Source of the DNA: Candidatus Omnitrophota bacterium
Lineage (GTDB): Bacteria; Omnitrophota; Gorgyraeia; 2-01-FULL-45-10
Length of the DNA stretch: 37,600 nt
Assembly (NCBI GenBank): GCA_022703295.1
Contig: JAKLDX010000001.1
Location: forward strand, 1 to 37,600
Direction of reading: 5' to 3'
Shown: positions 598 through 3,923 of the stretch, in pieces
How the letters are laid out: each line of letters starts with the position of its first letter
Numbering within the stretch: the first letter of the stretch is position 1
Notes under the pieces: model-generated
What the model saw: only the letters and a program-made list of their open reading frames with translations
What the model was told of the DNA's origin: nothing
The model's database searches: none
Translations under genes and position numbers: made by a program

Positions 598-646
598 TTT
601 GTGTCCCTTCGGGACCTGTCACGATGGTAGGCAAAATTTGGCGGGG
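598..646 (+). repeat. Copy A of a ~45-nt repeat family (TTGTG..GTCCC-loop-GGAC ... CAAAAT..TGGC), + orientation
   Basis: tttgtgtcccttcgggac...caaaatttggcgggg aligns by eye with 958-1006 and with the reverse complements of 2918-2960 and 3876-3923. Confidence 0.5.
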
Positions 647-674
647 ATGCAGGGGATCGAACGGGAAAAGGGTT

Positions 675-704
675 TTAGGGAAAAACACCCCTGTTTTTCC
701 CTAA
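675..704. repeat. Perfect 13-bp hairpin (TTAGGGAAAAACA CCCC TGTTTTTCCCTAA)
   Basis: Inverted repeat read directly. It has the same TTAGGG...CCCTAA ends as the hairpin at 765-794. Confidence 0.65.
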
Positions 705-764
705 GAGTGTCGTTTAACTGCAAAGGAAGGGGAACAGCGTCTGCGGCTATTCAATATTTCAGCG

Positions 765-794
765 TTAGGGGGAAACCATTGGGTTTCCCCCTAA
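765..794. repeat. Perfect 13-bp hairpin (TTAGGGGGAAACC ATTG GGTTTCCCCCTAA), GGGAAACC family
   Basis: Inverted repeat read directly. Confidence 0.7.
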
Positions 795-957
795 GGAGCG
801 AAGGCCGAGCAAGACTAATTTTGTCTAATATGTACTGGTCGCAGCGAGGCCGAAGCGACGTGAGATTCCCCGTCGTCGTTCCTATTTCTCCTTGACTAAT
901 CTTCCGCACAGGCGTAGCATAATCTTAACTGATTTAAATACAGCAGGTTATGAATTT

Positions 958-1006
958 TTTGTGGGTGTCCCTTTTTAGGACGGCCCCTATATCAAAAATG
1001 GCACAG
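958..1006 (+). repeat. Copy C of the ~45-nt GTCCC-hairpin repeat family, + orientation, immediately upstream of the island's first gene
   Basis: tttgtgggtgtccctttttaggac...caaaaatggcacag. The core TTGTG(GG)TGTCCCTTT..GGAC matches the reverse complement of 3904-3923. Confidence 0.5.
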
Positions 1007-1021
1007 TTTTGGAGATAAAAG

Positions 1022-1774
1022 ATGTACCCGTATGATTTCTTTACACAATATCGCGTAGATCAATTGGTAGATCAAGTATTTGTAGGAATGTGGTTTGATC
1101 AAGAGCATAAACCACGTTATGATAACGTAATCGTTAAGGCTATAAAAAACGCTAACCTAAAACCTTATCGCGTTGATCAGCCAGTTTCAGGAGACTCAAT
1201 CCCAATAAATATATTACAGGGAATATTGAATTCGAAAATTGTGTTATTCGATGTTTCATATATAACATCCGAGATTTCGATTTCACCCTCTGTTAAAAAG
1301 AGGTTTCGTAATGCAAACGTTATGTACGAATTAGGGCTAGCGCATGCATGGAGACTACCGGAAGAAATTATTGTAATAAGAGATGATGAAGATTCTCTTC
1401 CCTTTGATGTCACCACATTCAGAGCTCATAAATATGATTTTAACAACGTAGATAGTTCAATAAACCAATTATCAAAAGTTATAACGGATTCTTTCTCGGA
1501 AATTAATAGAGCTAAGTCATTAATGGTAGAAAGGGCAGCGAAATCGCTAGATTCTCGATGCATTAATTTTATTTTTAGTAACCGAGGAAGATATTTCAGC
1601 GAAACTAAGTATGATCCTGTCACCGCGAATATTATCAACAGGCTTCTTGATCTCAGAATTTTGTGGATAGACACTTCTGGCGGTGGGGGATCCTATGCTT
1701 ACCATTGGACAGAACTTGGAAGAGATGTAATTAAATATCATAAGATAGAGCCATGCCCTAAAAACGAGTCATAA
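1022..1774 (+). CDS. TIR-like / nucleoside 2-deoxyribosyltransferase-like (Rossmannoid) domain protein with a C-terminal wHTH-like region
   Basis: 250-aa ORF with GGAG 7 nt upstream of the ATG. The N-terminal strand QVFVGMWF, then SKIVLFDVS, then RNANVMYELGLAHA match the R-x-NV-[FY]-E-L-G pattern of TIR-like (COG4271/PF10137-type) and NDT-like domains. The C-terminal ~80 aa (ANIINRLLDLRILWID..GGGGSYAYHWTELGRDVIKY) look like helix plus wing. AT-rich codon usage. Motif recognition only. Confidence 0.6.
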   Translation: MYPYDFFTQYRVDQLVDQVFVGMWFDQEHKPRYDNVIVKAIKNANLKPYRVDQPVSGDSIPINILQGILNSKIVLFDVSYITSEISISPSVKKRFRNANVMYELGLAHAWRLPEEIIVIRDDEDSLPFDVTTFRAHKYDFNNVDSSINQLSKVITDSFSEINRAKSLMVERAAKSLDSRCINFIFSNRGRYFSETKYDPVTANIINRLLDLRILWIDTSGGGGSYAYHWTELGRDVIKYHKIEPCPKNES

Positions 1775-1775
1775 C

Positions 1776-2876
1776 ATGGTAAAACCTCCAATTAAGCTTG
1801 CGGTAGGAAGAATACAAGAATATAACAAAAACACGTTTATAAAGCGCCTATTGAATATTGGCATTGTGGGTCTTATAATCGTTTTGTTTTTATTTTTTGT
1901 GTACAAACTTATACCAAATCCATATTTATGTTATGGCTATAAGCCAATAAAGATAGGTAAACAACCGATCGAGTTTGACTGGGCAGGGGATTCTTATCAA
2001 TGTCGTTTTGGTATTGCAAATTCTGGAGTTTTTGACGTAAAAAATCCTATACTGCAAATATACTTTATTGACGGTGCTGATGTTAAGCCTGTTTCAAATA
2101 ATACAGAGTGGCAAAGGAATGATGAAGCAAATTATTTTTGGTCGAAAAATATTACTATTCATGGTGGAATCAAAAGCGTTGATTTGGCGGAACGTGCTCA
2201 AGCTATAAACGTCAAATTTAACAATAACGGTTTAAATAGAATAAAATATATTATAACATCGAACGGAATACAAAAAAGAGGCACGATAAATGTTATTAAT
2301 TCACATGGATCCGATAAAGTGTCCCAAGATGCAATTGAAATAGCAAAAAAGACAGAATGGCCATATTTTAAACTTAGGTTAAATTTTGATAACAATCAAG
2401 ATGAAATACAGATTTATAATGAAGGAGGAAAATTTAGAGAGCTGAATACCGAGGTGTATTTATTTTGGAGTATAACGTCTGATAAAACTTTGCTTAACCC
2501 AAAGGATATAGCGGTTCTAAACTATTACAATCTTAGCTCCATAGATTCACTTCTTTCGGGTAGTAAGCCCATAACAATATCTGCTGCAGACCCTGCAAAG
2601 GCGACAGACCTCATTGATGGGTTTAAAAAATTGGCAAAGGAAAAAGGTTTTTTAGCATTTATATCAGCAAAGAGATATGTTCGCATGCAATATAAAGATA
2701 TATATGATGAATCGCACGATGATTTTTACAGCCTAGATAAGATTGGGGGTAAGAAGATGTCAAAAAATGAAGCCACAGAAATGATGAAAATATATAATCA
2801 GGCAAGAGATCAGAATATGGTTATAGATATGCTAACCACATCATCGGAAATTTTATATGAGAAATGGCAACATTAG
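1776..2876 (+). CDS. Single-pass (N-in) membrane protein with a ~320-aa domain of unknown function
   Basis: 366-aa ORF starting 1 nt after the stop of the upstream gene. A basic N-terminus is followed by the hydrophobic helix LLNIGIVGLIIVLFLFFVYKLI. The remainder has no motif I recognise; the first part looks beta-rich. Confidence 0.6.
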   Translation: MVKPPIKLAVGRIQEYNKNTFIKRLLNIGIVGLIIVLFLFFVYKLIPNPYLCYGYKPIKIGKQPIEFDWAGDSYQCRFGIANSGVFDVKNPILQIYFIDGADVKPVSNNTEWQRNDEANYFWSKNITIHGGIKSVDLAERAQAINVKFNNNGLNRIKYIITSNGIQKRGTINVINSHGSDKVSQDAIEIAKKTEWPYFKLRLNFDNNQDEIQIYNEGGKFRELNTEVYLFWSITSDKTLLNPKDIAVLNYYNLSSIDSLLSGSKPITISAADPAKATDLIDGFKKLAKEKGFLAFISAKRYVRMQYKDIYDESHDDFYSLDKIGGKKMSKNEATEMMKIYNQARDQNMVIDMLTTSSEILYEKWQH

Positions 2877-2917
2877 AATATGGGGGGCGGCGGTTCCGGA
2901 TGCAATCCCAGACCTAT

Positions 2918-2960
2918 CCCCGAAATTAATTGAGAACATGTCAAAAAGGAACACACAATT
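2918..2960 (-). repeat. Degenerate copy R2 of the GTCCC-hairpin repeat family, - orientation, just downstream of the membrane-protein gene
   Basis: ccccgaaattaattgagaaCATGTCaaaaaggaACACACAAtt aligns with taattttgggatCATGTCcgaaagggACACACAAg at 3889-3923. Identity is about 75% over ~35 nt by eye, and the hairpin is eroded. Confidence 0.45.
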
Positions 2961-3036
2961 TTAATAGAGTGCCCCCCAAAGTGACACGTCTCCTGTATAC
3001 GATAAATAGTCGTTGCACCCTAAAACGGTTAAAAAT

Positions 3037-3870
3037 ATGAATACTTTATATAAGTATTGTGATCGGGCAGGTATTGTAAATATCTTGGGGTTGTTAGAAT
3101 TAAAATTGCCATATGTCGCTGAAGTCAATGATCCGTTTGAATGTTTGCCAATATTTGACTGCAAAAATGATTTATCCGCTATTAAAGCACGATGTTTATT
3201 AGCATTCAAACGTAAAAATGTAGACCCGCTATCAAATTTTGACGAAAAAGTTAAAGAAGAATTCGGAAAAGGTGATATTCAAAAAAAGCTTAAACAGATT
3301 TCGCGAGAAAATCAAAATGAGTGGAATCAAAAAAGAAGTTGCCTGATATCTGTTTCAAAGACCGCGCAAAATACTGTTATGTGGGCTCATTATGCTGAAA
3401 AACACAAGGGAGCGGTTATTGGAATTGATTTTGATATAATTCTTCAAAGACGAAACAGCCCATATGGTATTGTGATGGACCCTGTTAGTTATTCTAAAAA
3501 TAGGCCTCGAATAGATATTTTGGTTGATCCCGATAGTAAAATCTGGGGCGACCAATTCATAAAACTATTGCTAACTAAATCAGATAATTGGAGTTATGAA
3601 AAAGAATATCGCACGGTTTTTCTGGATCATTCTTTAGAAGAGTTCCGGAAACAAGGACTAGCTAGCGTCAAAGACTTCGATGGCAAGAAAACATGGTTTT
3701 TGCGACTCAACCCATTATCAATAAAAGAAATCGTTTTTGGTTTATATATGGAAGACGATATAAAAATAGCTATTAGAAAATCACTAAAACGTCCAGAATT
3801 ACAGCATGTAAAATTGTATCAAGCTATGGAATCAGAAACATATATTCTTAATTTGATCGATCTATCATAG
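3037..3870 (+). CDS. DUF2971-family protein
   Basis: The ORF is open from TTG 3013; ATG 3037 (MNTLYKY...) is the more likely start. Family hallmarks are LYKYCD..GIVNIL...LKLPYVAEVNDPFE, MWAHYAEKHKGAVIGIDF and TKSDNWSYEKEYR. AT-rich like the two genes upstream. Confidence 0.65.
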   Translation: MNTLYKYCDRAGIVNILGLLELKLPYVAEVNDPFECLPIFDCKNDLSAIKARCLLAFKRKNVDPLSNFDEKVKEEFGKGDIQKKLKQISRENQNEWNQKRSCLISVSKTAQNTVMWAHYAEKHKGAVIGIDFDIILQRRNSPYGIVMDPVSYSKNRPRIDILVDPDSKIWGDQFIKLLLTKSDNWSYEKEYRTVFLDHSLEEFRKQGLASVKDFDGKKTWFLRLNPLSIKEIVFGLYMEDDIKIAIRKSLKRPELQHVKLYQAMESETYILNLIDLS

Positions 3871-3875
3871 AAACA

Positions 3876-3923
3876 GGGGGTGGCCAAGTAATTTTGGGAT
3901 CATGTCCGAAAGGGACACACAAG
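3876..3923 (-). repeat. Copy R3 of the GTCCC-hairpin repeat family, - orientation, just downstream of the DUF2971 gene
   Basis: The reverse complement reads CTTGTGTGTCCCTTTCGGACATGATCCCAAAATTACTTGGCCACCCCC. It contains a GTCC-GAAA-GGAC hairpin and sits in inverted orientation relative to copies A and C. Confidence 0.5.

Follow-up and report, generated by a model that had tools for sequence, protein, structure and literature searches.

Palindromic repeats around a low-GC island of an Omnitrophota genome as probable members of a REP/REPIN-RAYT family

The closest described relatives of the repeats considered here are repetitive extragenic palindromic (REP) sequences and the enzymes associated with them. 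Two inverted REPs with a spacer form a REPIN, and REPINs are thought to be mobilized by REP-associated tyrosine transposases (RAYTs) (PMC3337134, PMC3116915); the RAYT of Escherichia coli binds and cleaves single-stranded REP DNA (PMC3479197, PMC3733652). REPs are habitually found downstream of coding regions (PMC3733652), and the REPtron, or REPIN-RAYT, architecture is known from Proteobacteria (PMC3116915, PMC3337134, PMC3733652). Here, we analyze a window of 37,600 nucleotides (nt), contig JAKLDX010000001.1 (C1) of assembly GCA_022703295.1, from a metagenome-assembled genome (MAG) of a Candidatus Omnitrophota bacterium, in which short palindromic repeats named A, C, R2, and R3 accompany the three open reading frames (ORF1 to ORF3) of a low-GC island. 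We propose, with a probability of roughly 0.8, that an Omnitrophota-specific REP family includes C, the R2 doublet, and R3 as members in decay. Our literature search turned up no paper on REP-type elements in Omnitrophota.

The Omnitrophota elements resemble the REP, bacterial interspersed mosaic element, and REPIN systems and their RAYTs (REP-TnpA_REP of E. coli, REPIN-RAYT of Pseudomonas fluorescens) in having short imperfect palindromic units, inverted doublets with a short spacer, an extragenic location that is mostly directly downstream of genes, a Y1/HUH transposase gene between inverted units (the REPtron layout), and several RAYT clades, each with a unit variant of its own. Unlike classic REPs, they have an A/T-rich head followed by GGGGAC without a strict GTAG, a very low copy number, a strong sense-orientation bias, and A-rich loops in both arms of the doublet on the sense strand. 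Hairpin ends, a Y1 transposase of the kind that reads single-stranded DNA, and the lack of a visible target-site duplication also recall the ends of IS200/IS605 elements and their palindrome-associated transposable element (PATE) derivatives, but the co-oriented end hairpins of IS200/IS605 enclose the transposase gene, whereas the Omnitrophota units are inverted and most copies are gene-less. An initial annotation of the window had called the repeats similar to miniature inverted-repeat transposable elements (MITEs), and this description holds insofar as the units are non-autonomous palindromic repeats and a candidate RAYT is flanked by the same units in two other genomes (G012 and G017). Like MITEs, such as the Correia elements of Neisseria, they are small and intergenic with inverted ends; they differ in that no target-site duplication was found (no direct repeat at the edges of identical copies or of the island), in that the linked enzyme is a Y1 and not a DDE transposase, and in that the element is essentially two repeats. 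We conclude that the family is an additional member of the known REP/REPIN-RAYT kind and not a novel cassette-recombination site.

A repeat family of Omnitrophota and its likely transposase

We searched 61 related genomes (hereafter relatives) for the repeat element with a covariance model and found it in 22 of them. The unit is about 27 nt long and consists of an A/T-rich head, GGGGAC, and then GTGTC-loop-GACAC, the stem being either GTGTC/GACAC or TGTCC/GGACA. The inverted doublets, an architecture found in 24 to 29 copies, measure about 65 nt; their consensus is A/T-rich head, GGGGACGTGTCA-AAAA-GGGACACAC, a spacer of about 8 to 14 nt, and GAGTGTCCC-AAAG-TGACACGTCCCC. Over the 29 distinct doublets, spacers range from roughly 5 to 30 nt and are mostly about 10. 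A search of a species-representative genome collection for a 21-nt core, GGGAYGTGTCAAAAAGGGACA, yielded 36 exact matches, nearly all of them in Omnitrophota-labelled MAGs (the other labels are four ‘Planctomycetia’ MAGs and one ‘Rhizobium’), and zero exact matches in IMG/VR. This distribution indicates that the family is specific to Omnitrophota. One relative (G001) carries three near-identical doublets whose flanks differ, and the presence of such copies inside one genome points to recent copying of the doublet as one unit.

The scored elements of other genomes are intergenic in 35 of 46 cases, while the remaining 11 overlap ORFs of a crude caller. Among the intergenic doublets of these genomes, 20 of 23 lie between tandem genes, in sense orientation, at a median of 28 nt past the stop codon, in agreement with the habitual downstream placement of REPs; R2, R3, and two further copies on contig C215 of the host MAG conform to this pattern. 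At five loci (L045, L059, L064, L067, and L072), the upstream ORF of some copies extends 1 to 5 nt into the element (gaps –1 to –5), and its stop codon overlaps the A/T-rich head. Housekeeping genes found beside doublets encode Hsp70/DnaK-type proteins, DnaJ, class II fructose-bisphosphate aldolase, RNase E/G, ribosomal protein L21, and LptF/G; accessory or defense families found there are Mrr, Eco57I-type, AbiEi, Gp49, PDC-S05, and PDC-S23.

Y1 transposases (Pfam Y1_Tnp) occur in 51 of the 61 relatives, often several per genome. In G012 (contig C34), a 196-aa Y1 protein is preceded by GGGGACGTGTCA-CTTA-GGGACACAC and followed by the inverted GAGTGTCCC-AAAG-TGA... Among NCBIfam models, the protein is matched best by REP_Tyr_transpos, ‘REP-associated tyrosine transposase’ (1.2e-19), and its sequence contains the motifs NHFHLL and RYIERNP. 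An orthologue in G017 (contig C72; 71% identical to the G012 RAYT) has two perfect inverted flanking units (E 2–3e-7), so that inverted units of the family accompany a RAYT gene in two genera. More distant RAYTs, at 43 to 57% identity, have variant units on their flanks that share the GGG(A/C)C head. The variant unit ATAGGGGCCATCC-TAAAAA-GGGACACCC (L097, L099, and L101) is nearly the reverse complement of C: one substitution and one 1-nt indel separate the two, a difference counted over 31 positions for the units on either side of the L099 RAYT gene. Around RAYT genes, the heads of the units point outward, a polarity opposite to that of the island. On the strength of these gene neighborhoods, the RAYT (Pfam Y1_Tnp) is the likely transposase of the family.

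Units at the low-GC island

The initial annotation described A, C, R2, and R3 as four copies of one repeat that bracket the island genes, with a small hairpin in each intact copy. On re-inspection, all four positions were borne out. The layout is also real: C, ORF1 and ORF2, the R2 doublet, ORF3, and R3 follow one another, with heads toward the genes and the outer units at GC boundaries. The proposal of a single family needs to be divided, as R2, R3, and C are related and A belongs to another repeat. The small hairpin is preserved in A, C, and R3, whereas that of R2a, the first half of R2, is disrupted.

R2 (2928–2995, plus strand) is an inverted REP doublet of about 66 nt, REPIN-like in form, that begins 54 nt past the ORF2 stop in sense orientation. 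It comprises R2a (2930–2958; GAGAACATGTCAAAAAGGAACACAC), a spacer (2959–2966), and the inverted R2b (2967–2993; GAGTGCCCCCCAAAGTGACACGTCTCC), a second half that was overlooked in the first reading and was recognized from the doublets of relatives. We found that R2 is the top match in the whole MAG of a doublet hidden Markov model (HMM) built from relatives only (25 doublets; E 5.8e-10, 39.1 bits, model positions 5–69); on five shuffled genomes, the maxima of this model were ≤10 bits in four and 16.3 bits in one. R2 is the most decayed among 24 doublets (Watson–Crick in 10 of 18 stem pairs), and its minus-strand fold has z = –2.5. C (961–993, minus strand) is a single REP unit at the left GC boundary that reads ATAGGGGCCGTCC-TAAAAA-GGGACACCCAC on its strand, with the head to ORF1 and the tail outward. 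The relatives-only unit HMM found it at 963–991 (E 0.0097, 16.0 bits; shuffle maxima ≤11.6), and the doublet HMM gave it E 0.054; the initial covariance model (R1) missed C because its loop is longer, and subsequent HMMs recovered it. The R2 doublet and C thus withstand comparison with shuffled controls, both of them exceeding the shuffle maxima in relatives-only models.

R3 (3893–3922, plus strand; TTTTGGGATCATGTCCGAAAGGGACACACAA) is one degenerate REP unit, located where the island ends on the right in GC content; it begins 25 nt past the ORF3 stop, has sense orientation, and points its tail outward. Its resemblance to R2, noted at the outset, is confirmed by an ungapped match to R2a at 24 of 29 positions (2930–2958 versus 3894–3922). 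R3 is also the top non-training match of a model made from the C215 copies only (E 0.0011), the R2+R3 model and the C215 two-copy model are each other’s best non-training matches (E 0.036 and 0.0011 genome-wide), and one of the C215 copies, C215b, reaches E 1e-6 in relatives-only models. An HMM of all candidate copies matches eight genomic places only (the four window copies, the two tandem C215 copies, one on C12, and one on C212), the next match having E = 5. In leave-out tests, R2, R3, and both C215 copies recognize one another, while A and the copies on C12 and C212 are separate. The element, whose genome-wide dispersal the initial annotation proposed to look for, shows no wide dispersal in the MAG: there are about six clear units, every one of which adjoins low-GC DNA, and the window copies are all intergenic. 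At each of the three visible island boundaries (window left, window right, and C215), the GC transition coincides with a unit whose head points to the island. The two tandem C215 units (4333–5055, locus L003) come right after a low-GC (0.32) stretch that holds two ORFs without a Pfam match and extends to the contig end; on their other side are a gene for a DUF6132 mini-protein and then trpD.

Copy A (573–646, plus strand) is not a family member; it falls in another repeat, about 77 nt long, that consists of CTCTTATATATCTTATCCTCCTAA, a GTCCC-TTC-GGGAC hairpin, and then GGCAAAATTTGG. Window positions 565–641 are 87% identical to the C12 copy over 77 nt and 85% identical to the C212 copy over 65 nt; all three copies share an exact 24-nt block, and a tRNA gene lies near each. 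In the relatives G003 and G029, the hairpin of this repeat is GTCAC/GTGAC rather than GTCCC/GGGAC, and A went undetected by every relatives-only REP model. Because A lies in a long separate repeat whose hairpin varies in G003 and G029, it shares just a short hairpin with the other copies, and these alignments indicate that it is an element different from the REP family. Read on the minus strand, the A-type repeat (547–665) contains a degenerate tRNA-Asp-like 3′ end with the trailer CCAAATTTTGCC (about 665–630), a 5-bp hairpin (615–603), AGGAGGATAAGATATATAAGAG, and a perfect 13-bp hairpin (577–547). It is convergent with the tRNA-Val gene of the window, modules of this kind are also found close to tRNA genes elsewhere in the MAG (C12, C212) and in two relatives (G003, G029), and it could be a small RNA or terminator module.

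Origin of the units and competing explanations

By analogy with E. coli and Pseudomonas, the RAYT, an HUH/Y1 enzyme, would recognize the units as single-stranded DNA hairpins and would copy them in trans into intergenic DNA. No RAYT is detectable in the MAG, and its copies are degenerate and occur solely in rare low-GC islands. Most likely the islands brought these copies with them from a different Omnitrophota genome, or the copies are what past activity left behind; on the simplest reading, a lower-GC Omnitrophota donor with an active RAYT would have brought the units in along with the islands. Since they stand directly past stop codons in sense orientation, the units are probably transcribed as stem-loops of the 3′ untranslated region (3′-UTR), with a putative effect on the mRNA.

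Several observations weigh against assigning the window copies to a REP family. Y1_Tnp/RAYT was not found in the MAG of the window (79% complete), and the G012 RAYT scores 70.6 bits with the NCBIfam model, below the curated cut-off of 80. Copy number is low, with about six units in the MAG and ≤11 matches per relative in the covariance model search, whereas classic REP families have hundreds of copies. Of 58 units, only 13 show ATAG or GTAG ahead of the G-run, which makes for a weak canonical GTAG tag; an A/T-only triplet takes this place in 41 of the 58, and CGTC sits inside the outer box (GACACGTCCCC) and not at the terminus. R3 alone is at noise level genome-wide (E 1.0–1.6 in relatives-only models), and we count it as a member because of its match to R2a and the C215 copies and its typical position 25 nt past a stop codon. 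Simple random insertion of REPs accounts neither for the 20:1 bias in how doublets are oriented to genes nor for the position of units at low-GC boundaries (3 of 3 observed). Finally, the mobility of the units is inferred.

Could the units instead be mainly a host RNA element, a 3′-UTR stem-loop that stabilizes mRNA, marks a processing site, or terminates transcription, and that is kept by selection and not by transposition? The placement of 20 of 23 doublets in sense orientation at a median of 28 nt past the stop would suit such a role, as would the possible long hairpin, in which about 90% of stem cells are paired, and the conservation of sequence across genera and families. Pair counts of the long hairpin and of two local hairpins show little covariation and no strand asymmetry: there are four compensatory pairs versus 1.6 expected (13 of 500 shuffles reach four), and G-U and A-C departures are balanced at 16:18, implying no pairing selection on either strand. 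In addition, the sense strand lacks a U-tract after the stem, 39 of 61 relatives are without units, identical copies with different flanks occur inside single genomes, the units are directly associated with RAYT genes, and no Rfam family matches them (at gathering thresholds and in a permissive scan of 1–4300, Rfam returned only the tRNA). We therefore regard an RNA element as unlikely. A promoter or terminator was considered separately and rejected, with no consistent –35/–10 spacing and no sense-strand U-tract. That the likeness among short GT-rich hairpins is due to chance is scarcely credible. The minimal core GTGT[CT]CC-N3-6-GGAC, taken by itself, occurs 5 times in the genome versus 3 to 7 times in shuffles, and A and R3 are non-significant in relatives-only models; against this, independent tests recover both R2 (E 5.8e-10) and C (E 0.01), three core matches fall within 3.4 kb, and homologous units exist in dozens of other genomes. 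Chance is ruled out for R2 and C, and A resembles the family through its short hairpin alone.

The initial annotation also likened the repeats to attC-like or cassette-delimiting sites. Whether of the integron attC type or a new analogue, such half-sites would bound each gene unit as a cassette, and a site-specific recombinase would excise or insert it at the doublet center. Much about the island invites this comparison. Units stand at both GC boundaries and between the two gene units with heads inward, the C215 boundary is alike, all clear units adjoin DNA of a GC class (<0.40) that makes up 0.7% of windows, and orientation to the ORFs is fixed. Like integron attC sites, the elements are imperfect palindromes that lie 3′ of ORFs sharing one orientation, in DNA that is variable and low in GC, with two stem segments, an unpaired spacer, and a variable loop; the A-rich loops in both doublet arms, unable to pair on the sense strand, recall the unpaired spacer of attC. 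Locus L054 holds gene-doublet-gene-doublet arrays of orphan ORFs. There (PLNR01000008.1, 4084–6876), two REP doublets and one half-unit lie between four co-oriented orphan ORFs of 134 to 312 aa without a Pfam match, an arrangement like a cassette array. What decides against this explanation is the distribution of the integrase, the appearance of real attC sites in the lineage, and the company that the doublets and ORF2 keep elsewhere. Only three of the 61 relatives have an IntI (TIGR02249) that scores over the curated cut-off; in no case does it lie beside the element, and the genomes with most copies (G010, G001, and G005) lack it. In G059, which has a real integron, the attC sites are of the classical form (TAAC...AAACGTT) and bear no relation to the units: five of them (TAAC...GCCGCTGAGTTCAAACGTT) adjoin the IntI gene, and the REP doublets of G059 are on another contig. 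Unlike attC, the units have no R″/R′ boxes (RYYYAAC/GTTRRRY) and no linked IntI, their outer boxes being GGGGAC...GTCCCC. Doublets are also preceded by housekeeping genes in relatives, ORF2 homologues in three other genomes lack units, and the units around RAYT genes have the opposite polarity, heads outward. Cassette-delimiting sites are thus quite improbable, and such a role of the units in the island is not supported. The G059 integron itself (locus L126, contig C1, 9594–17913) is a classical one in an Omnitrophota MAG, with an IntI 386 bits over the TIGR02249 cut-off and, after IntI, lower-GC DNA with five attC-like sites spaced 0.8 to 2.3 kb apart.

A variant that retains the REP family is that REP half-units serve as breakpoints at which low-GC gene units, among them defense candidates, are cut out and moved between Omnitrophota genomes. 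We consider this doubtful. If it were true, the RAYT or another enzyme acting at the doublet center would mobilize head-inward cargo, and REPINs would take the place of attC in a cassette system.

Genomic setting and implications

The MAG of the window comprises 1.27 Mb in 220 contigs, with 48% GC and 79% completeness. The upstream landmark of the island is a tRNA-Val (GAC) gene (230–306, plus strand; ARAGORN, Rfam tRNA 70.1 bits), 3′ of which lie about 650 nt of non-coding DNA with short repeats that are also present elsewhere in the MAG. GC content is 0.32 to 0.38 within the island (1001–4000) versus 0.46 to 0.49 on either side, and only 0.7% of the 1-kb windows of the MAG have GC < 0.40. 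The first island unit (1022–2876), between C and R2a, contains ORF1 (1022–1774, plus strand), with a weak PADLOC TIR match (E 0.0066), and ORF2 (1776–2876, plus strand), for which no family matched. The second, between R2b and R3, is ORF3 (3037–3870, plus strand), a candidate defense protein (Pfam DUF2971, 1.3e-10; PADLOC PDC-S31, 1.3e-36). An exact-protein look-up placed ORF3 on one JGI contig, the sole other assembly of the island found, which is 100% identical to the window from position 412 on; the same look-up returned no record for the downstream glycosyltransferase. In an empty-site comparison, glycosyltransferase orthologues of five relatives showed no synteny or flank similarity at the island locus, and the ORF2 homologues in G110, G097, and G193 have neither ORF1/ORF3 neighbors nor repeat units. 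A direct repeat of the tRNA 3′ end that could serve as an att site of the island was looked for and not found.

Other repeats are present in the same region. In the JGI contig (L125), positions 1–410, which correspond to window positions 1–412, carry a tRNA-Asp gene (95% identical to the MAG’s own contig C130) in place of tRNA-Val, and the switch point is a repeated hairpin, ATAGGGGGAAACC...GGTTTCCCCC; the difference is either an assembly ambiguity or a real rearrangement at repeats 3′ of tRNA genes. A second hairpin repeat family, (T)AGGGGGAAACC-N3-4-GGTTTCCCCC(T), occurs 3′ of tRNA genes at 62–86, 422–446, and 766–790 of the window and also on C6, C12, and C212, and a 46-nt tRNA trailer repeat (301–347), with matches on C150, C155, and C139, likewise recurs 3′ of tRNA genes. 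One copy of a 28-nt direct repeat (71% identity; CCGTCG...CCTTGACT) lies on each side of the island (870–897 and 4125–4152); both copies contain a TTGAC –35-like motif, and the pair is probably due to chance or to two similar promoters. Two REP doublets are also found in a low-GC island of about 7.5 kb at another locus (L024; G026, contig C4, 8485–18021), together with a STAND-NTPase-like ORF of 1286 aa and others. Perfect inverted repeats, at least 85 nt long (about 10400–10485, plus strand, and about 17960, minus strand), stand on the two sides of that island, which adjoins a large serine recombinase (8485–9975, minus strand), and the segment may be invertible or mobile.

Taken as REP/REPIN-type elements, the units account for the apparent ‘terminal inverted repeat’ around a candidate defense island, and their annotation as attC sites or transposon ends is to be avoided. 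A consensus and a likely cognate transposase are now available for Omnitrophota REP-type elements. For specialists, the 20:1 orientation bias of doublets relative to flanking genes and the position of units at the GC boundaries of islands are of note. The units are a likely source of assembly breaks, and in Omnitrophota MAGs they would serve as markers of imported or variable DNA.

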